IMG/VR virus record: IMGVR_UViG_2693429599_000001
Location: 1 to 6,826 of that record
Origin: a virus
Taxonomy: Duplodnaviria; Heunggongvirae; Uroviricota; Caudoviricetes
Strand: one strand, 5' to 3'
Length of the DNA stretch: 6,826 nt
Position numbers and translations under genes: made by a program
In this document: piece by piece, positions 1 through 6,826 of the stretch
How positions within the stretch are numbered: position 1 is the first letter of the stretch
How the letters are laid out: the number at the start of each line of letters is the position of its first letter
Notes under the pieces: generated by a model
What the model was told of the DNA's origin: nothing
Database searches by the model: none
What the model saw: only the letters and a program-made list of their open reading frames with translations

Positions 1-1535
1 TTACGCAGTGCGCCTTCCTGCTGGTCAAACAGGTCAGTCCCCACCGCCTCATAAGCGGACTGAAACTCTTTAAAGTCACCGCCGAGGTTGTCCTGCATGA
101 TATTTACCAGCTCGGCGGTCTTCCCGTCTGAGGCTTTAAACGCAGCGGTCAGTTTGTCCAGCTTTCCGGTTGAGGCGGCAGTCATCAGCACGGCGGCGGC
201 TGAGCTGGCCTCCTCCCCGAAAATAGTTTTCATGTATTCAGCCTGCTGGGCAGTACCGAGCCGGTTTTTCTCAAAACTGGCCTGCATTTCTTTCAGAATG
301 GTAAATACTGGTCGGGTATTCCCCTTACTGTCTGAGGTTTTTACGCCAAGCTCTTTGAGTGCATCCCATGCTTTTCCCGTTGGTGCCTGCAGGCGACTTA
401 ACACGGCACGGCTTCCCGTCCCCGCCATTGAGCCTGTGATTTTTGCATCATGCAGCGCCCCGACCATTGCGGCGGTTTCTTCAATGCTGACACCGGCATT
501 TTTTGCCACAGGTGCGGCATAGGTCAGCGCATCGCTCATGCCGTCAAAATCGGCGGCGGTTTTGTTCATCGTCATGGAGAGAACATCCCCGATATGAGCG
601 ACCTTATCGTTTGAAAGCTGAAAGGCGGATTTCATCCCCATCAACAGGGCGGCGTTTTCTTCCATCGTGCGACGGTTCGCCAGCGCCATATTCAGCGTGA
701 CCGGCGTTGCCGCCTGAATGGCATCAACATCCCCACCGGCTTTTGCAATAATAATCTGCGCACCGGCTGCATCATCTGCCGAGGCTGCGGTATTGTCGCC
801 GAGCTGACGCGCCTGCTTGCGTAGTGCAGCCATTTCGGCGGAGTCTTTTGCCACTCCGAGCACAGCCTGTAATTCTGAGTTTTTCTGCGCAAACTCATAA
901 CCGGGCATCAGCAGCTTAACTCCGGCCATCGTTCCCGCCGCCGCAATCCCCACACCGGCAGCGCCCACCGAGGCCATATTTCCGGCCAGTTCCTTTCCGG
1001 CCTGATAACGCTGTTTTACTGCGTTAAGTTTTGCCTGTTGCGCACTGACACGCGCCAGTGCGTCGCGCTGACGATTAAGCTGTGCGGTGGTTTCACTGAT
1101 ACGGTTTTTCAGCCCCTGCTCATCATGTGCAAGATTGCGGGTATTAATTCCCACAGCGGCCAGTTCCCGCTGCTGGCGTTTAACGGAATCCGTCAGGCGG
1201 TTATATTTCGCCTGTAAGTCCTCCGCCGCTCGCTTTGCTGATTCCAGCACTTTCGCCTGAGCACGGGTCGGACGTTCGGTGTTTTTAAACTGTGTGGCAA
1301 GGGCTTCGGCCTCCTGCCGTGCCTTTTCAAGTGCATGACCAGTCACGGCAAGCTGTGCACTGGTCTTGCGAAATCCCTCAATACGGGAGGCGTGACCGTT
1401 CAGCTCGCGCAGTGATTTTTGTGTTTCCCGGATATCCCCCGACAGCGACTTACTCGCTGTGCGGATGGATTTAAACGGGCGGGATGCCTGGTCAACAGCC
1501 CTGAGCAATACCTGTAATTTTACATTGTTACTCAT
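1..1535 (-). CDS. T: Tail tape measure protein, P2 gpT-like; N-terminal 511 codons, gene runs off the window at position 1
   Basis: Minus-strand ATG at 1535-1533 translates MSNNVKLQVLLRAVDQASRPFKS; the frame stays open to the window edge (the tta at 1-3 is out of frame). Its ATG overlaps the E' stop (AATGAGTAA), and it sits downstream of E/E' as in P2. Coiled-coil-like A/Q/K/R-rich sequence. Confidence 0.85.
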   Translation of the reverse strand, partial: MSNNVKLQVLLRAVDQASRPFKSIRTASKSLSGDIRETQKSLRELNGHASRIEGFRKTSAQLAVTGHALEKARQEAEALATQFKNTERPTRAQAKVLESAKRAAEDLQAKYNRLTDSVKRQQRELAAVGINTRNLAHDEQGLKNRISETTAQLNRQRDALARVSAQQAKLNAVKQRYQAGKELAGNMASVGAAGVGIAAAGTMAGVKLLMPGYEFAQKNSELQAVLGVAKDSAEMAALRKQARQLGDNTAASADDAAGAQIIIAKAGGDVDAIQAATPVTLNMALANRRTMEENAALLMGMKSAFQLSNDKVAHIGDVLSMTMNKTAADFDGMSDALTYAAPVAKNAGVSIEETAAMVGALHDAKITGSMAGTGSRAVLSRLQAPTGKAWDALKELGVKTSDSKGNTRPVFTILKEMQASFEKNRLGTAQQAEYMKTIFGEEASSAAAVLMTAASTGKLDKLTAAFKASDGKTAELVNIMQDNLGGDFKEFQSAYEAVGTDLFDQQEGALR

Positions 1536-1955
1536 TCGTGTTTCCGCTTCGCCGGAGCGCCTTTTCGCGCCATGTGATAAGTTCGGTCAGGCTCATGGGA
1601 TACAGTTCTGATGGCGGCCAGTGAAATATCACTGCCACATCCGCCATCAGGTCATCGACCGAGAGATTTTTCGGAAACGTCACTGCACCGAGTTCGGCGA
1701 CAAAAAACCGACCACCTTACCGGCCAGCGCCACAAGGTCAGGCAGTTCCAGCGCGGCGACTTCCTGCTCGGTCAGCATCGGTGCCGTCATGCGCGGCAGC
1801 ACCTTAATCAGTGCATCGACTTCGGAGTTTGCAACCGCAGCCAGACTGACACCGCGTAGCGTCCCGGCATTGGGTTTCATCAGCGTGACCTGTTCGATAA
1901 CCTGCTCACCACGTTTGACCGGATTGTCCAGGGTAATGACATTTTCTTTGTTCAT
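1528..1955 (-). CDS. E+E': Tail assembly chaperone gpE+E', product of a programmed -1 frameshift (142 aa predicted)
   Basis: After the slip at GGT TTT TTG, the -1 frame stays open for 57 codons (VAELGAVTFPKNLSVDDLMADVAVIFHWPPSELYPMSLTELITWREKALRRSGNTNE) to a TAA at 1530-1528. That gives 85 + 57 = 142 aa, the length I recall for P2 E+E'. Confidence 0.75.
1680..1955 (-). CDS. E: Tail assembly chaperone gpE (91 aa)
   Basis: ORF-track protein MNKENVITLDNPVKRGEQVIEQ...GFLSPNSVQ; its position between tube and tape measure, its length and the slippery site near the 3' end match P2 E. Confidence 0.9.
   Translation of the reverse strand: MNKENVITLDNPVKRGEQVIEQVTLMKPNAGTLRGVSLAAVANSEVDALIKVLPRMTAPMLTEQEVAALELPDLVALAGKVVGFLSPNSVQ
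1701..1707 (-). other. Slippery heptamer T_TTT_TTG for the E/E' -1 ribosomal frameshift
   Basis: Plus strand caaaaaa at 1701-1707 is TTTTTTG on the minus strand, in the 0-frame context GGT TTT TTG at codons 83-85 of E. The P2 and lambda G/GT-type chaperone frameshift sites are of this kind. Confidence 0.75.
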
Positions 1956-2011
1956 GGTTTTCTCACTTCTGAATCAGGGTTAACCGGCCAGCCAGGCTGA
2001 CCGGATGAAAA

Positions 2012-2530
2012 TCACAGGCCGATATTGCGGCGGTGTTGCTCCAGCCGGTCGACGCCGTTCACCTTCTCAATCATGTTGATGGTGTCAATTTCGACCAGCT
2101 CCTTACCGTCCATCGTCAGCCGGAAATAGGTGCAGACCACGGAGATTTTCGACTCAGTGTCTTCTCCCTGTTTACCCTCGCCGGTGTCGATTTCTTTCTG
2201 ACGTCCACGCATGACCACTTCGACGGCCACCGTTTCGCCGGTATCATCGCGCTGGTAAGAGCCTGCAAAACGAATCGGCACGGCATCCACGCCGGTTGCG
2301 GCGTAAAGCTCCCAGATAACCGAATCCGGGAAGCCCCCGAGCGACCACTCCATTGACAGCGCATCGTCATCAAGGCCGAGGTCTACCGGTGCGCTGCCGT
2401 TCATCCCCGCACCGCGATAGTTTTCGAGCTTACGGGTCAGTTTTGGCAGCGTGACGGACTTTGCAACGCCCTGATAGCTGTAGCCGTTCAGAAAGACGTT
2501 CATTAACTTGAGTTTGCGTGGCATTGCCAT
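2012..2530 (-). CDS. FII: Tail tube protein, P2 gpFII-like (172 aa)
   Basis: ORF-track protein MAMPRKLKLMNVFLNGYSYQGVAKSVTLPKLTRKLENYRGAG...; GGAG ribosome-binding site 8 nt upstream of the ATG; lies immediately downstream of FI, and its size matches P2 FII. Confidence 0.9.
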   Translation of the reverse strand: MAMPRKLKLMNVFLNGYSYQGVAKSVTLPKLTRKLENYRGAGMNGSAPVDLGLDDDALSMEWSLGGFPDSVIWELYAATGVDAVPIRFAGSYQRDDTGETVAVEVVMRGRQKEIDTGEGKQGEDTESKISVVCTYFRLTMDGKELVEIDTINMIEKVNGVDRLEQHRRNIGL

Positions 2531-2542
2531 CGGTCAGGCTCC

Positions 2543-3733
2543 TTAATTGCTGTTAACCGAGGTGACCAGATTTGCCAGGTATTTATCGGTAATACGCTGG
2601 CGCAGGGTCAGGTTTTCGAGAGGAGGCACCGGTGTATAGTCGTAGTCGATATACAGTTTTCCGGCCTTGAGGGTTTCCGCATCGTTGGATTCTTCGCTGA
2701 ACCAGCAGGTCGCATCCACGATATAGCCGTTTGTTTTCAGCTCACGGAATTTGGCATTGATGCCGTCAACGATGTCGCGAATCAGCGTTGCGGTGATGGG
2801 CTTGTCCACCGCCCACATGTGCGCCTCAGCCATCGTGTCGGCCAGCACCTGCGCGGTGCGGGTGTAGTTTTCAAAGAGGAACAGCGGGTCATCAGAGCAG
2901 GTACGGTTACCCCAGAAGCGGAAACCATCACGGCGAATCAGCGTTGTGACGCCTGACTCATTCAGCAGGTCAGCATCGGTGCCGGACTCCTGCAAATCCC
3001 AGAATACAGAGGCACTGATGCCGGTAACACCGTTTACCCCGACATTGGACAGCGTTTTATGCCAGCCCTGCTCCTGGTCGATTTTAGCGCGCAGACCCAG
3101 CGCACGGGCGGTGGCATACGCGGTGGCGGTGGTGCTGCTGACCGTATCCCATGCGAGGAAATCCGGCCAGATGACCATCAGCTCACGCTGGCTGAAATTC
3201 TGGCGGTAGGCTTTCACCTCGGAAATGGTTTTACAGCCCCATGCGCTGATATACCCGAAAGCGCGCAGCTTCTGACAGACTGATGCCAGTGCAACAGCCA
3301 CCTCTTTGGTGTCCAGTCCCGGCACGCCGAGAATACGCGGTTTAACACCGGTTACCGACTCCGCCGCCAGCAGGGCTTTCAGTCCGGTATACTGACCGTT
3401 TTCGTCAGTGGTGCCGATGATATTGGAAACGGTCTGCGCGAGTTTCGTTTCTTCGTCGTCGCCGGTGCCGTCTTCAACACGCACGACAACGGTAACCGGT
3501 TTTGACTGGTCAGCGATGGCCTGCAACGATGCCGCCAGCGTGCCTTTTTTACCGGCCTTTGCAATTGCGCTCTGCACATTGGTAATCAGCACCGGTTTAT
3601 TGAGGGGGAAGGTTTCCGCATCCGCATCGCTGGCCGTACAGACCATGCCGACAATGGCAGTGGATACGGTGGAAATGACGCGGGTGCCGTCGTTAATCTC
3701 CAGCACCTGCACGCCGTGATGATAGTCACTCAT
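2543..3733 (-). CDS. FI: Contractile tail sheath protein, P2 gpFI-like (396 aa)
   Basis: ORF-track protein MSDYHHGVQVLEINDGTRVISTVSTAIVGMVCTASDADAETFPLNKPVLITNVQSAIAKAGKKGTLAAS...; a GGAG ribosome-binding site precedes the ATG; length and N-terminus match P2 FI as I recall it. Confidence 0.93.
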   Translation of the reverse strand: MSDYHHGVQVLEINDGTRVISTVSTAIVGMVCTASDADAETFPLNKPVLITNVQSAIAKAGKKGTLAASLQAIADQSKPVTVVVRVEDGTGDDEETKLAQTVSNIIGTTDENGQYTGLKALLAAESVTGVKPRILGVPGLDTKEVAVALASVCQKLRAFGYISAWGCKTISEVKAYRQNFSQRELMVIWPDFLAWDTVSSTTATAYATARALGLRAKIDQEQGWHKTLSNVGVNGVTGISASVFWDLQESGTDADLLNESGVTTLIRRDGFRFWGNRTCSDDPLFLFENYTRTAQVLADTMAEAHMWAVDKPITATLIRDIVDGINAKFRELKTNGYIVDATCWFSEESNDAETLKAGKLYIDYDYTPVPPLENLTLRQRITDKYLANLVTSVNSN

Positions 3734-3792
3734 CCGTTTAACTCCGTGGTTAATGGGTGAGTGATATTTTCAGTTGTGCCGGAGATGTCAGG

Positions 3793-4386
3793 CTATTTGT
3801 CCCGGTTGGCTAAGGGATGACACAATTTATTCTTTGTCGCTGATGAGGGGAATTTTTTATAGAGCGTGGACAGGCCAATATCAAAAATCAGCGCCACGCG
3901 TTGACGTGATTCACCCGCAGCCAGCAACCGTCCTGCCTGTTCCCACTCACTCGCGGTGAGCTTCGGACGTCTGCCACCAATACGACCTTTGGCTCTGGCC
4001 GCTTCCAGTCCGGCGCGAGTCCGCTCAACAATGAGTTCTCGCTCCATTTCAGCCAGGGCACCCATCACATGAAAGAAAAAACGCCCCATCGGCGTGCTGG
4101 TATCAATGGCATCCGTCAGGCTGCGAAAATTAATGCCGCGTTCGCGCAGCTCCTCAACCAGAATGACCAGATGCCGCATACTACGCCCCAGCCGGTCCAG
4201 CTTCCAGACTACCAGTGTATCCCCCTCCGATAATGTCCTGAGCAGTTTTTTCAGCCCCGGCCTGTCGGACTTCGTGCCGCTGATTTTATCCTCAAAAATC
4301 AGCTCACATCCTGCGCACTCCAGCGCGTTACGCTGCAATTCCGTGTTCTGGTCATTTGTTGACACGCGTACATAGCCAATAAGCAT
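3793..4386 (-). CDS. Serine DNA invertase, Hin/Gin/Cin/Pin family (resolvase-type catalytic domain plus C-terminal HTH)
   Basis: Translation MLIGYVRVSTNDQNTELQRNALECAGCELIFEDKISGTKSDRPGLKKLLRTL...VVWKLDRLGRSMRHL...GINFRSLTDAIDTSTPMGRFFFHVMGALAEMERELIVERTRAGLEAARAKGRIGGRRPKLT has the active-site Ser in VRVSTNDQ. I prefer the ATG at 4386-4384 (GGGGGA ribosome-binding site 5 nt upstream) to the ORF-track start at 4392. Confidence 0.9.
   Translation of the reverse strand: MLIGYVRVSTNDQNTELQRNALECAGCELIFEDKISGTKSDRPGLKKLLRTLSEGDTLVVWKLDRLGRSMRHLVILVEELRERGINFRSLTDAIDTSTPMGRFFFHVMGALAEMERELIVERTRAGLEAARAKGRIGGRRPKLTASEWEQAGRLLAAGESRQRVALIFDIGLSTLYKKFPSSATKNKLCHPLANRDK
4279..4303 (-). promoter_or_regulatory. 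Candidate recombinational enhancer element (Fis-site-like palindrome) inside the invertase 5' coding region
   Basis: Imperfect palindrome gctgatttt-N7-aaaatcagc at about +83 to +107 of the invertase gene; a second A/T-tract element ctgagcagttttttcag lies at 4238-4254, about 45 bp away. Hin, Gin and Cin enhancers lie in the 5' part of the invertase gene with two Fis sites about 48 bp apart. Position-based inference only. Confidence 0.25.
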
Positions 4387-4413
4387 GAGCATCCCCCTGA
4401 ATAAAAACCGGAG

Positions 4414-4803
4414 ATGATGCCAGTTGCCCGTTATCTCTGCATTTTCATAAACGTTGGTTTGGGGGAATTGGCTCTGGCTGGCGCAACAACCGGCGCTATG
4501 TTGGTGAATGGGTATGTAGCAATTCCATTAATTATTTCTGGCGTTCGGAGACCACTTATTATCCAGTGGGGAGTGGGGCAGTTTGGGGGAAGTCTGGGGG
4601 ATGATGCGGGATATTTAAACAATTTCCCTTTCGCTTTTCCGTCGGCGTGCTACGTGATGGTTGCCAGCCACGTGGGGCATACACCTTCGGGTGCCGGAAT
4701 ACTATCTGCTTCCGCAATCACAAAAAGCGGCTTTCGTGGTTTTTCCAGCGTAGTGACTGCCGCAAATCCTGTATCGGGCTGTTATGTTGCTATAGGAGGG
4801 TGA
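4414..4803 (+). CDS. Tail-fibre C-terminal (tip) cassette, invertase-proximal duplicate; probably silent unless joined to a fibre 5' part by recombination
   Basis: From 4454 it encodes the same 116 C-terminal residues as the fibre ORF ending at 5771 (LGELALAGATTGAMLVNGYVAIPLIISGVRRPLIIQWGVGQFGG...SGCYVAIGG). The ATG at 4414 directly abuts a GGAG (no spacer) and lies in the invertase upstream region, so independent translation is doubtful. Confidence 0.5.
   Translation: MMPVARYLCIFINVGLGELALAGATTGAMLVNGYVAIPLIISGVRRPLIIQWGVGQFGGSLGDDAGYLNNFPFAFPSACYVMVASHVGHTPSGAGILSASAITKSGFRGFSSVVTAANPVSGCYVAIGG
4442..4467 (+). other. Putative invertase crossover site A (26 bp, 12-2-12): ttttcataaacg tt ggtttgggggaa
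   Basis: Imperfect dyad with AAAC-type half-sites resembling hix/gix/cix/pix sites; lies 55 bp upstream of the invertase start; the 429-bp repeat begins at its central TT. Confidence 0.6.
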
Positions 4804-4882
4804 TGTGTTTTTTAGTCCATCTTTAAATATTTTTGTGAATCCTGCGCTTAAGGATGACTACATCAATGTAAATTCATGGCCA
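4454..4882 (+). repeat. Direct repeat copy 1 (429 bp, identical to 5422-5850)
   Basis: Base-by-base comparison of the two blocks; the identical antisense ORFs 4431-4622 and 5381-5590 in the ORF track reflect the same repeat. Confidence 0.95.
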
Positions 4883-4885
4883 TGA
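4805..4885 (+). pseudogene. Truncated tail-fibre assembly gene fragment (first 26 codons of the tfa at 5773, then a stop at the repeat boundary)
   Basis: GTG at 4805 with an AGGAGG ribosome-binding site, identical to the 5773 start; the frame hits TGA at 4883-4885, exactly where the repeat ends. Confidence 0.55.
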
Positions 4886-4901
4886 AGGCGTACTCATTGC
4901 G

Positions 4902-5771
4902 GTGGCGAACTGCCCGGAAACGTACAAACCGCAGTTGCAGGAAGGCAGTGGTCGTACCCAGACTATCCGCATGATTCTGGTTGTCACGAATACCGAAGCC
5001 ATCACGCTGAAAATCGACCCGTCGGTGGTACTGGCGACCCGTAAATACGTGGATGATAAAGTCCTGGAATTAAAGCTGTATGTGGATGACCAGATGAGAA
5101 ACCACATTGCCGCACAGGATCCTCATACCCAGTATGCACAGAAACATAATCCGACATTTACCGGAGAACCAAAAGCGCCGACGCCTGCCGCAGGAAATAA
5201 CACCACGCGGATTGCGACCACTGCGTTTGTACAGGCCGCTATTACCGCTCTGATTAACGGTGCCCCTGACACGCTGGACACACTGAAAGAAATTGCCGCA
5301 GCTATCAACAATGACCCGAAATTCAGTACCACCATTAACAATGCGCTGGCAGGTAAACAACCGCTGGACAATACGCTGACTCATTTGAGTGGAAAGGATG
5401 TAGCTGGTCTTCTCACATACCTTGGTTTGGGGGAATTGGCTCTGGCTGGCGCAACAACCGGCGCTATGTTGGTGAATGGGTATGTAGCAATTCCATTAAT
5501 TATTTCTGGCGTTCGGAGACCACTTATTATCCAGTGGGGAGTGGGGCAGTTTGGGGGAAGTCTGGGGGATGATGCGGGATATTTAAACAATTTCCCTTTC
5601 GCTTTTCCGTCGGCGTGCTACGTGATGGTTGCCAGCCACGTGGGGCATACACCTTCGGGTGCCGGAATACTATCTGCTTCCGCAATCACAAAAAGCGGCT
5701 TTCGTGGTTTTTCCAGCGTAGTGACTGCCGCAAATCCTGTATCGGGCTGTTATGTTGCTATAGGAGGGTGA
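4902..5771 (+). CDS. Tail fibre protein, 5'-truncated copy or alternative cassette (shaft region plus C-terminal tip); first ~100 codons of a full fibre gene absent
   Basis: Frame is open from 4872 with no ATG; first GTG at 4902. Encodes VLIAVANCPETYKPQLQEGSGRTQTIRMILVV...KYVDDKV...HNPTFTGEPKAPTPAAGNNTTRIATTAFVQAAITALINGAPDTLDTLKEIAAAINNDPKFSTTINNALAGKQP, which from memory resembles P2 gpH around residues 100-160 and the conserved enterobacterial side-tail-fibre motif. Crossover site B lies at codon ~170. Confidence 0.75.
   Translation: MANCPETYKPQLQEGSGRTQTIRMILVVTNTEAITLKIDPSVVLATRKYVDDKVLELKLYVDDQMRNHIAAQDPHTQYAQKHNPTFTGEPKAPTPAAGNNTTRIATTAFVQAAITALINGAPDTLDTLKEIAAAINNDPKFSTTINNALAGKQPLDNTLTHLSGKDVAGLLTYLGLGELALAGATTGAMLVNGYVAIPLIISGVRRPLIIQWGVGQFGGSLGDDAGYLNNFPFAFPSACYVMVASHVGHTPSGAGILSASAITKSGFRGFSSVVTAANPVSGCYVAIGG
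5410..5435 (+). other. Putative invertase crossover site B (26 bp): ttctcacatacc tt ggtttgggggaa
   Basis: Right half-site and core identical to site A, left half identical at 8 of 12 positions; same orientation as site A; lies inside the fibre ORF (encodes ...LLTYLGLGEL...). Confidence 0.6.
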
Positions 5772-5850
5772 TGTGTTTTTTAGTCCATCTTTAAATATTT
5801 TTGTGAATCCTGCGCTTAAGGATGACTACATCAATGTAAATTCATGGCCA
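5422..5850 (+). repeat. Direct repeat copy 2 (429 bp, identical to 4454-4882)
   Basis: Base-by-base comparison; starts at the central TT of site B and ends 78 bp into the tfa at 5773. Confidence 0.95.
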
Positions 5851-6207
5851 GATGATGCTGTTGAAGTTGATGAGCAGGTGTATATTGAGTTTTCCGGATT
5901 ACCGCCGAAAGGAAAAATCCGTATCGCTGGGGAAAATGGTTTTCCTGCATGGTCTGAAATTCCACCACCAACGCATGAGGAACAGATTGCCGCAGCCGAA
6001 TTGAAAAAACAGCAATTGATTAATCAGTCCAACGAATATATGAATACCAAGCAATGGCCTGGTAAAGCGGCTATTGGTCGTCTGAAAGGTGAGGAACTGG
6101 CGCAATATAATTTGTGGCTGGATTATCTGGACGCACTGGAACTGGTTGATACCTCCAGTGCTCCAGATATTGAATGGCCTACGCCTCCGGCAGTTCAGGC
6201 CAGATGA
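5773..6207 (+). CDS. Tail fibre assembly protein (Tfa, P2 gpG or Mu U-like chaperone) for the plus-strand fibre cassette
   Basis: GTG start 5 nt after AGGAGG and 1 nt after the fibre stop; C-terminus ...WLDYLDALELVDTSSAPDIEWPTPP shares the conserved Tfa C-terminal motif with the 6179-6772 protein. Confidence 0.85.
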   Translation: MFFSPSLNIFVNPALKDDYINVNSWPDDAVEVDEQVYIEFSGLPPKGKIRIAGENGFPAWSEIPPPTHEEQIAAAELKKQQLINQSNEYMNTKQWPGKAAIGRLKGEELAQYNLWLDYLDALELVDTSSAPDIEWPTPPAVQAR

Positions 6208-6772
6208 CATCCGGCGCGGTGCTCGTATCTGTTGCCGTCACCGCGTCAATGTAATCAAGCACGGCGTTAAGCCGGGTGGTTTCTGCCTGCGTCAGCTTCC
6301 GCCCGGCCTGTAATTTCAGCTGAATCAGGCTGATGGAAGCCATTGCAGCATCAATCAGTGACTGGCGCTGTGCTTCTGCCGCTTCTACTGCGGCACCGTG
6401 TTGTGCCTCAGTATCTGTCACCCATTTCTCACCATCCCATTTATCATATGGCGTTAACGGTGAAAGCGTGACATAACCGTTTTTGATGGCACCGATATAA
6501 TCCACTGTAACAGCTGCGCCATTTTCGATTGAGTAAACAGTCTCATTGCGATGGTCTTCTTCATGGCTCCATCCCTTACCTGTAAATACTGCCACTCTTC
6601 CCGGAATGTTTTCGCCAGGGTCAATACCAGTGGAACAGGCGGGCATACTTACGCCAGTATTAATATATTCATCAGACCAGCCCGTATACTCAGATGTTTC
6701 AGCATCATAATAAAAACAACGCATATCGCCCGGCACTGTAGCCAGCCCATTTTCATCAAAAACAGGTTTCAT
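6179..6772 (-). CDS. Tail fibre assembly protein (Tfa) partnered with the minus-strand fibre gene upstream
   Basis: ORF-track protein MKPVFDENGLATVPGDMRCFYYDAETSEY...LDYIDAVTATDTSTAPDVIWPELPEA; GAGGG ribosome-binding site upstream; converges on the plus-strand tfa with a 29-bp 3' overlap (6179-6207). Confidence 0.85.
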   Translation of the reverse strand: MKPVFDENGLATVPGDMRCFYYDAETSEYTGWSDEYINTGVSMPACSTGIDPGENIPGRVAVFTGKGWSHEEDHRNETVYSIENGAAVTVDYIGAIKNGYVTLSPLTPYDKWDGEKWVTDTEAQHGAAVEAAEAQRQSLIDAAMASISLIQLKLQAGRKLTQAETTRLNAVLDYIDAVTATDTSTAPDVIWPELPEA

Positions 6773-6826
6773 TATTTAGCCCTCACCAGAAAGTTAAATG
6801 CAATGTTACGTGGTCTGACGGCAATA
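6772..6826 (-). CDS. Extreme 3' end of the upstream minus-strand gene, presumably the expressed tail fibre (P2 H equivalent); partial, frame unresolved
   Basis: Two minus-strand frames are open to the window edge: one ends with TGA at 6785-6783 (...LPSDHVTLHLTFW), the other with TAA at 6774-6772 overlapping the tfa ATG as TAATG (...NFLVRAK). Gene order H then G is expected from P2. Confidence 0.3.
   Translation of the reverse strand, partial: IAVRPRNIAFNFLVRAK

Follow-up and report, generated by a model that had tools for sequence, protein, structure and literature searches.

The tail-fibre switch of a P2-like prophage of Escherichia coli contains, in one deposited contig, an extra 968-bp copy that includes a second, directly oriented crossover site and a truncated fibre-tip cassette. 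Most probably the copy arose by accident in a very recent duplication, or else reflects faulty assembly, and does not represent a new type of switch. The first of these, a real, one-off and recent duplication within a standard two-site Gin/Pin-type locus, is given a probability of roughly 0.55. The DNA analyzed here, hereafter the window, is the entire 6826-bp contig CYFI01000057.1 of the draft E. coli assembly GCA_001283785.1 and spans the tail module of the prophage. Its features are as follows.

1-1535, minus strand: tail tape measure gene (gpT), truncated where the contig stops; Pfam PhageMin_Tail; collinear with the tape measure genes of the related loci L001 and L009
1528-1955, minus strand: tail assembly chaperones gpE (1680-1955) and gpE' (1528-1683); Pfam Phage_TAC_7 and Phage_P2_GpE
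2012-2530, minus strand: major tail tube gene FII, 172 aa; Pfam Phage_tube and RefSeq annotation of relatives
2543-3733, minus strand: tail sheath gene FI, 396 aa; Pfam Phage_sheath_1 and RefSeq annotation of relatives
3793-4386, minus strand: Gin/Pin-type serine DNA invertase, 197 aa, intact; Pfam Resolvase and HTH_7
4442-4467, plus strand: crossover site A, TTTTCATAAACG TT GGTTTGGGGGAA; invertase-side half joined to tip-X half, a state-1-type junction
4454-4882, plus strand: repeat copy 1; fibre tip X, its stop codon (4801-4803), then tfaX codons 1-26 (4805-4882)
4882-4883, no strand: novel junction (GGCCA|TGAAGG) at which fibre codon ~96 follows tfaX codon 26
4883-5421, plus strand: 3' portion of the constant region of fibre gene H, from codon ~96 to the crossover site; Pfam Phage_tail_fib
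4902-5771, plus strand: 289-aa ORF CTZ01891.1, a 5'-truncated fibre gene in which constant codons from ~102 onward are fused to tip X
5410-5435, plus strand: crossover site B, TTCTCACATACC TT GGTTTGGGGGAA; fibre-constant half joined to tip-X half, a state-2-type junction
5422-5850, plus strand: repeat copy 2; tip X and tfaX codons 1-26, running on into the complete tfaX
5773-6207, plus strand: tfaX, tip-X tail fibre assembly chaperone, 144 aa, complete; Pfam Caudo_TAP
6179-6772, minus strand: tfaY, tip-Y tail fibre assembly chaperone, 197 aa; Pfam Caudo_TAP_N and Caudo_TAP
6773-6826, minus strand: final ~18 codons of fibre tip Y, truncated where the contig stops; collinear with L001 to its position 8148

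The genes follow the P2-like tail order H-G(tfa)-FI-FII-E-E'-T, and all of them match the corresponding protein families in Pfam; NCBIfam contained no specific model for the proteins of the window. P2-like prophages with ogr, gpD, gpU, baseplate and lysis genes are collinear with it at 97-99.96% nucleotide identity. The invertase has the catalytic-serine motif YVRVST, aligns over residues 1-182 with Mu Gin (3UJ3; E = 1.2e-94, phmmer) and also matches Hin's DNA-binding domain (E = 1e-8). Its exact protein sequence occurs in 1859 blocks of the collection, and the exact tfaX protein is common in E. coli. As in the relatives, the two cassettes are mirror images, tip X-tfaX on the plus strand and tfaY-tip Y on the minus strand, with a tail-to-tail overlap at 6179-6207. 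Fis enhancer sites are spaced by ~48 bp; a scan of the first 300 nt of the invertase gene gave candidate 15-mers and no pair at about that distance, with a degenerate motif that is too weak to decide the matter. For systems of this type, a recombinational enhancer that depends on Fis and lies in the 5' part of the invertase gene is described (PMC3798978).

In each of sites A and B, a 2-bp core separates two 12-bp half-sites that form an imperfect inverted repeat, a 26-bp layout that agrees with the published consensus. The core and the right half are the same at the two sites, and the left halves are alike at 8 of 12 positions. Because both cores read TT on the plus strand, the sites are directly oriented. 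When the window was searched on either strand with the palindromic consensus TTNTCNNAAACCNNGGTTTNNGANAA, allowing up to three mismatches, A and B (two mismatches each) were the sole matches; the chance expectation is 0.01, and two matches were reached in none of 200 shuffles. Site A is placed upstream of the invertase, 55 bp from the start called at 4386. The same hybrid sequence as in site A occurs in L001 (6743-6768), the sequence of site B recurs unchanged in L004, L006 and L009, and the 3' site of EC958 Phi2 likewise has the right half GGTTTGGGGGAA (PMC4134206).

Comparison of relatives in the two inversion states revealed that the half-sites (invertase-side, fibre-constant-side, tip X and tip Y) reassort exactly at the core, with reciprocal combinations in state 1 (L001 and L013) and state 2 (L002, L004, L007, L009 and L010). 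Sites A and B are exactly the two junction types of the state-1 and state-2 relatives. Judged by this exchange at the core, A and B are genuine Hin/Gin-family crossover sites, as the original prediction had held. The occurrence of both state-specific junctions on one contig indirectly suggests that inversion takes place in this strain. The inverted site, which would be the third in the window's locus, was found in all intact relatives examined (8540-8565 in L001), where tip Y runs ~390 bp further to this site and is followed by the full-length fibre gene. From a model based on L009 and from collinearity with L001, the inverted partner that had been postulated beyond position 6826 is expected ~390 bp past 6826, at a window-equivalent position of about 7216.

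The two copies of the repeat, 4454-4882 and 5422-5850, are identical at 429 of 429 positions, and the identity starts at the first base of the core and ends abruptly on both sides. The block comprises the last 116 codons of the 289-codon ORF at 4902-5771, the stop codon and tfa codons 1-26, with the tfa start at 5773 in copy 2 and 4805 in copy 1; copy 1 is also 100% identical to the same block in L009. The layout of sites and repeat first described for this DNA, from the direct orientation and the 12-2-12 architecture to the extent of the block and the distance to the invertase, is thus borne out, and it is the deposited sequence, not the DNA of the strain, for which this confirmation holds.

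The segment 4883-5421, between the copies, is oriented opposite to the sheath and tube genes. It corresponds to L001 9093-8540, read in the reverse direction; in L002 the match begins at position 6001, which is 286 nt into H. Its left end forms the junction 4882|4883, which is present in neither inversion state and creates a TGA directly after tfaX codon 26 of copy 1. The ORF CTZ01891.1 that begins shortly downstream lacks the fibre N-terminus and probably also a promoter. An exact-protein look-up found this 289-aa ORF on record for this contig alone, and its sole cluster mate is an ordinary partial fibre at the start of contig L004, which has no second junction. At 4882|4883 the microhomology is 0-1 bp, and the partners have neither a common core dinucleotide nor any likeness to a crossover site. 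Because the dinucleotide is lacking, the junction was not made by the invertase. A quasi-site product of the enzyme was rejected on the same grounds; a clean product of that kind is seen in L005, where inversion involving a sheath-gene quasi-site exchanged DNA exactly at the common AA/TT core.

The arrangement is unique to this contig within the collections searched. The canonical pair of inverted sites is present in every intact relative examined, ten loci whose invertase protein is identical among them, and none has more than two. In megablast searches of 5,426 complete E. coli genomes with 3700-6826 and with a 120-bp junction probe, no place was aligned across the junction, and no genome covered query 3700-6826 without collapse of the repeat. 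The arrangement was not found in the phage collection. A 28-mer spanning the junction had no match in exact scans of IMG/VR, GTDB representative genomes and JGI metagenomes, nor in the 5,426 complete E. coli genomes, and a literature search by the assembly accession GCA_001283785.1 returned nothing. On the other hand, one-off rearrangements in finished genomes, namely the inversion in L005 and IS-associated losses in L011 and L015, indicate that these loci do suffer such events.

Apart from the single novel junction, the window is collinear with an unduplicated locus and corresponds to L001 (state 1) plus 968 bp: L001 is collinear with positions 1-4882 and with 5419-6824, and its fibre constant part, reversed, corresponds to 4882-5435. 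The following pathway could account for this. The normal layout is the constant fibre part, a site, tip X and tfaX, then tfaY and tip Y in mirror image, a second site and the invertase. A tandem duplication would have taken place while the constant part was joined to tip X; its unit of 968 bp would start at fibre codon ~96, include the crossover site and tip X, and end at tfaX codon 26. This duplication would have been illegitimate rather than site-specific, leaving one new junction at 4882|4883, and would have produced a third intact crossover site. A subsequent invertase-catalyzed inversion between the two outermost sites would then have swapped the left half-sites and placed one tip copy beside the invertase gene. 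Duplication followed by inversion in this way predicts that the identity of the copies begins exactly at the core, since the later inversion exchanged the left half-sites, and that sites A and B are directly repeated.

The pathway was modeled in silico on the closest relative, L009, by tandem duplication of 7587-8554 and inversion of the stretch bounded by the first and third site cores. The product aligned with window positions 1-6826 in one gap-free alignment at 99.68% identity, whereas the unmodified L009 locus and the duplication alone each aligned in several pieces. The perfect identity of the copies implies that the event was recent. A recent duplication with its left boundary at the crossover core had been one of the two possibilities first raised; the duplication would stand, and the boundary would not, as the proposed unit spans the site and the boundary at the core would have been set by inversion. 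Identity to L009 is 99.955% left of site A, 100% in the repeat block, 98.7% in the constant part and 98.6% in the right-hand cassettes, a pattern of mismatches that points to a mosaic fibre region and is equally compatible with one prophage and with two.

Several observations weigh against a duplication. Its sole witness is one 6.8-kb contig from a short-read-style draft assembly, and the 28-mer of its junction is missing from the collections searched. Short-read assemblers usually break at exact two-copy repeats; the 429-bp block and the 539-bp constant part would both be such repeats, rarely resolved correctly from short reads, yet the contig runs through them. Microhomology of 0-1 bp is weak for replication slippage. 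Both the third site and another copy of the 539-bp constant part would be located outside the contig, so that a tandem arrangement is predicted rather than seen.

These points lead to the main competitor, which we consider a serious possibility, though the less probable one: a normal two-site locus in which the tip-X block was used twice and contig ends were joined at 4882|4883, so that no such molecule exists. The locus may have been flipping during growth, possibly beside a second P2-like prophage, and the fault could lie with the assembler, the scaffolder or the gap closer. A flipping population would supply both state-specific junctions of one tip, as observed, and an artificial join of two arbitrary ends would be expected to lack meaningful microhomology and to be found nowhere else, as is the case in the collections searched. 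A small contig of a draft assembly makes up the entire window; it starts midway through the tape measure gene, a hint of a second, related prophage that may have tangled the assembly graph. The unrelated draft contig L004 starts just 25 bp from the equivalent of 4883. Spurious duplication of invertible fibre regions is, moreover, a recognized hazard: the EC958 genome paper cautions that merging contigs of alternative orientation into an assembly produces artefactual duplications in phage fibre regions (PMC4134206).

However, a mixture of inversion states yields sites A and B and not the join of tfaX codon 26 to fibre codon ~96; a simple chimera of two states was rejected for the reason that it leaves the junction unexplained. 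Assemblers based on k-mers or overlaps need reads for a new junction, and on reasoning the observed product could not be derived from the usual behavior of graph assemblers and gap closers. Also rejected was the idea that fibre genes have a natural mosaic boundary at 4883, which would favor a contig-end artefact: the fibre genes of ten relatives have no such boundary at nucleotide 286 (codon ~96). The contig has no runs of N and no other traces of scaffolding.

Alternatively, the junction could be real and the larger structure different, with two tail modules arranged head to head in a large inverted duplication, or with the structure confined to a minor subpopulation. The head-to-head layout would place a second invertase and sheath gene beyond 6826 instead of a full-length fibre gene. 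Right of 4883, the layout is the reverse complement of a state-2 prophage (L002, L007 and L009), the contig shows nothing past tip Y, and the break inside the tape measure gene would be compatible with two copies of that gene. This is nevertheless unlikely: it invokes a far larger rearrangement than a 968-bp duplication for the same single junction, the local duplication model already reproduces the whole contig, and the finished genomes examined contain no head-to-head layout.

The remaining reading builds on the multi-state Min- or shufflon-like switch raised in the original prediction and takes the second direct site, with its cassette, as a selected feature that raises the number of fibre variants. 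It is essentially refuted: three intact sites (two seen and one expected) would permit four interconvertible arrangements and multi-site invertase systems such as Min of plasmid p15B exist, but the extra cassette is 100% identical to the resident one and offers no new tip, its tfa ends after 26 codons and its fibre piece lacks the first ~95 codons, the novel junction lies away from any crossover site, and the arrangement is known from one contig, exceeding the two sites of every intact relative examined and missing from the 5,426 complete E. coli genomes.

The local duplication, our preferred reading, can be placed against known systems. P2-like invertible fibre segments (EC958 Phi2, phage P2 of O157:H43 T22, and pro483) have the order I, H, tfa, tfa', Sv', invertase, FI, FII, the same 26-bp sites, and invertases and cassettes identical or nearly identical to those of the window. 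They differ in having exactly two inverted sites and one copy of each cassette, whereas the window has the additional 968-bp unit, with which a third site is predicted. The Din family of enhancer-dependent invertases, comprising Mu G/Gin, P1 C/Cin and e14 P/Pin, resembles the window in its Gin-aligned invertase, its 12-2-12 sites with exchange at the 2-bp core, its fibre gene split into constant and variable parts, and its mirror-image tip and chaperone cassettes. In contrast, the host element here is P2-like rather than Mu, P1 or lambdoid, and has the extra direct site. Recombination of Din enzymes at quasi-sites, such as quasi-cix recombination by Cin (Iida and Hiestand-Nauer, 1987, as cited in PMC4134206), is a comparable aberrant rearrangement of a fibre switch, with a clear case in L005 as described above, but 4882|4883 is not a junction of that kind. 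The multiple-inversion system Min of plasmid p15B, reportedly from the work of Sandmeier, Iida and Arber, has six mix sites. With the predicted third site, the window would be similar to it: a single molecule would have more than two same-family sites, part of them directly oriented, and several arrangements would arise by inversion only. Min, however, is a stable, inherited design in which different tip cassettes give many distinct fibre genes, while the extra cassette of the window is an exact truncated copy seen once.

If three sites are present, four arrangements would be reachable with only two fibre tips, and hence two specificities, and in one of the four, tip X would be expressed without a full-length sense tfaX downstream. 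Recombination of the direct sites A and B by the invertase would not be expected to cause deletion. RecA-dependent recombination between the 429-bp repeats should restore the normal locus, so the duplication is expected to be young and short-lived. In its present form the arrangement, known from one unverified draft contig, would provide no new host-range variant and would be unstable to homologous recombination. For annotation, the case is a caution that invertible fibre regions in draft assemblies can appear duplicated or chimeric for inversion state, and that promoterless tip cassettes (4414-4803) and truncated fibre ORFs (4902-5771) receive gene annotation.

If the duplication is real, it would be a concrete, small example of how an extra site and cassette are added to a two-state switch, and would represent possible raw material for the evolution of multi-cassette systems like Min. 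With direct and inverted sites on one molecule, it would in addition be a natural substrate on which the orientation selectivity of a Gin-type enzyme could be studied in vivo. Tentatively, if the contig is real and all three sites are active, the strain would have a naturally occurring Gin-type switch with three sites, cycling through four arrangements, a possibility we regard as open to considerable doubt. Should it be true, the locus would have captured the first step toward Min-like multi-cassette systems, in which a crossover site and its cassette are doubled together before the copies diverge.

The window is a complete small contig (CYFI01000057.1, positions 1-6826) of the draft E. coli assembly GCA_001283785.1, and its gene set, judged from sequence, is that of a P2-like prophage tail module:

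Cut by the contig end, minus strand: tape measure gene
Minus strand: gpE/E'
2012-2530, minus strand: tube gene FII
2543-3733, minus strand: sheath gene FI
3793-4386, minus strand: serine invertase, 197 aa
4442-4467: crossover site A, TTTTCATAAACG TT GGTTTGGGGGAA
Between the invertase and tfaX, plus strand: fibre-tip and fibre sequences
5410-5435: crossover site B, TTCTCACATACC TT GGTTTGGGGGAA
5773-6207, plus strand: tfaX, tail fibre assembly gene
6179-6772, minus strand: tfaY, second assembly gene
Cut by the contig end, minus strand: final codons of a second fibre tip

The invertase aligns with Mu Gin over 182 residues (E = 1.2e-94). Sites A and B are the only matches to the family consensus in the window at up to three mismatches (0.01 expected). 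They share cores and right halves and agree at 8 of the 12 left-half positions. With TT read on the same strand in each core, they are direct repeats. Positions 4454-4882 and 5422-5850 are identical over 429 bp, beginning at the first core base and stopping sharply at both ends. Site layout, direct orientation and the 429-bp identity were rechecked, and every factual element of the original prediction proved correct. The truncated fibre ORF of 289 aa (4902-5771, CTZ01891.1) is recorded once, from a single contig, by protein look-up. A 129-aa ORF (4414-4803), labeled 'gp53-like domain-containing protein' by RefSeq in relatives, reads across site A; it is a silent tip cassette lacking a promoter, whose start codon and first 13 codons are supplied by sequence flanking the invertible segment on the invertase side. 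Rather than an independent gene, this ORF is a by-product of annotation. The contig starts midway through the tape measure gene and stops ~50 bp into fibre tip Y, and neither end (1 and 6826) is an obvious repeat boundary of one prophage, suggesting that a second, related P2-like prophage, or some other element with these sequences, is present in the genome.

In relatives from complete genomes, the canonical order is I, H (constant part), site, tip and tfa, then tfa' and tip' on the opposite strand, followed by site, invertase and sheath. Ten loci with an identical invertase protein were fetched; all those that are intact carry exactly two sites, inverted with respect to each other, and in two degraded loci IS elements replace the fibre cassettes and one site is left. 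Among the loci with the identical invertase, L011 (8998-9702) and L015 (~8544-9476) carry transposase genes within the tail gene region or close to it; they have lost the fibre gene and some of the cassette sequence, and a single orphan crossover site lies beside the invertase. The relatives occur in both orientations, with the four half-sites re-assorting precisely at the core. In state 1 (L001, L013) the tip-X half is paired with the invertase-side half and the tip-Y half with the fibre-constant half, and state 2 (L002, L004, L007, L009, L010) has the two reciprocal combinations. In the window, tip X has its state-1 junction at site A and its state-2 junction at site B. Sites of this type, one of them with the same right half, and flipping in culture have been described in P2-like prophages of E. 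coli EC958 (PMC4134206).

The window is collinear with the state-1 locus L001 at 1-4882 and 5419-6824, and 4882-5435 is the fibre constant part of L001, reversed; it thus consists of the normal locus with 968 bp added. This extra segment runs from fibre codon ~96 (window 4883, nucleotide 287 of the fibre gene in L001 and L002) through a crossover site and tip X to tfaX codon 26. Its single novel junction, 4882/4883 (GGCCA/TGAAGG), creates a TGA right after that codon. The junction was considered as an invertase product and this was ruled out, because the partners have at most one base in common at the join, share no core-type dinucleotide and neither resembles a crossover site. In contrast, a true quasi-site inversion within the sheath gene is found in L005, where both reciprocal hybrids are joined precisely at the AA/TT core. 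In this locus (NZ_OZ546943.1, complete genome of E. coli AF57, ~3737-3762 and 7330-7355) the fibre-side site has inverted with the sheath quasi-site GCGACATTATCG AA GGTATCCGCGCC, intact in L006 at ~7270-7300, splitting the fibre gene as well as the sheath gene. This locus offers a naturally occurring case of quasi-site recombination by the invertase family of the window. In the sequence around the breakpoint (window 4877-4890 and 5845-5857; 5990-6005 in L002), the join lies immediately 3' of a palindrome, TGGCCA. A 7-mer, GATGATG, lies just past the tfaX breakpoint and straddles the fibre-gene breakpoint (5 nt before, 2 nt after). Relative to the actual join these copies are offset by 5 nt, and they may have guided a misalignment or be coincidental.

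A tandem duplication has one novel junction, from unit end to unit start. Only in state 2 does an uninterrupted stretch link fibre codon 96 with tfaX codon 26, the limits of the unit. The closest relative, the state-2 locus L009, is 99.955% identical to window 1-4467 (2 of 4467 positions differ). No differences occur in the 429-bp tip block, 7 of 539 in the fibre constant part (4883-5421) and 14 of 976 in the right-hand cassettes (5851-6826); compared with the remainder of the prophage, the fibre region is mosaic. When L009 was modified in silico by a tandem duplication of 7587-8554 followed by an inversion from the first-site core to the third-site core, the product aligned with window 1-6826 in one gap-free alignment (99.68%), whereas the unmodified locus, or duplication without inversion, required several pieces. 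We propose that the 968-bp unit was duplicated in state 2, the original copy spanning the site, and that a later inversion between the first and third cores swapped left halves. Copy identity would thus begin exactly at the core because the duplication spanned the site before the half-site exchange. The recent duplication suggested originally is essentially right, with the amendment that its unit is 968 bp and spans the site, its boundary not having been created at the core. The model predicts a third site ~390 bp past the contig end, followed by a full-length fibre gene in which codons 96 to the end are an inverted copy of 4883-5421.

We estimate the probability of a real tandem duplication at about 0.55. 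One duplication and one ordinary inversion would account for every contig base, and a mixture of states alone cannot supply the junction because it is found in neither inversion state. An assembly artefact is nevertheless quite possible: the contig is short and draft, passes through repeats of 429 bp and 539 bp, has an essentially blunt junction, and starts within the tape measure gene, hinting at a second related prophage; moreover, assemblies are known to be at risk of spurious duplications in invertible fibre regions (PMC4134206). Against it, besides the absence of the junction from both states, the relatives' fibre genes lack a mosaic boundary at codon ~96 of the kind that could turn 4883 into a natural contig end. 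L004, a normal state-2 locus on an unrelated draft contig (GCA_047769835.1, ABXUFX010000086.1), begins 25 bp downstream of the 4883 equivalent, probably by coincidence or through a SNP-determined graph break; its partial fibre protein clusters with the 289-aa ORF because of this start. Among 5,426 complete E. coli genomes, none spans the junction, and every one that covers the region does so with the repeat collapsed; IMG/VR, GTDB representatives and JGI metagenomes contain no copy of the junction 28-mer. Such uniqueness is expected from a private recent mutation and from misassembly alike. A different, larger structure is improbable.

That the locus is an evolved multi-state switch is very improbable, the Min-like or shufflon-like reading finding no support in an extra cassette that adds no different tip and a layout that is not conserved; the same grounds place it outside the multiple-inversion class typified by Min of p15B. 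It is a Din-family (Gin/Cin/Pin/Hin) fibre switch as in P2-like prophages, which it resembles in invertase, sites, cassette layout and the half-site exchange seen in relatives; its inverted partner site would lie beyond the contig end.

Symbolic enumeration of inversions between oppositely oriented sites gave four reachable arrangements with only two fibre tips among them. The first, the window's own, would express tip Y with tfaY, and the second tip X with full tfaX. The third, the plain tandem duplication, would express tip X, with a tfaX stub of 26 codons, the truncated fibre ORF and finally full tfaX behind it; the fourth would have tip X and the stub with no sense-oriented full tfaX downstream, and is probably defective. 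The Fis-enhancer invertasome limits wild-type Hin-family enzymes to inverting DNA between two sites of one molecule (PMC3798978), so the invertase is expected to delete between A and B only rarely. Through RecA recombination, the 429-bp direct repeats should cause loss of the unit and a return to the normal locus, and the 100% identity of the copies would fit a very young event.

If real, the arrangement would be a sporadic structural variant of a well-known system, and otherwise an assembly error; as a real variant, it would have modest illustrative value for how extra sites and cassettes arise.
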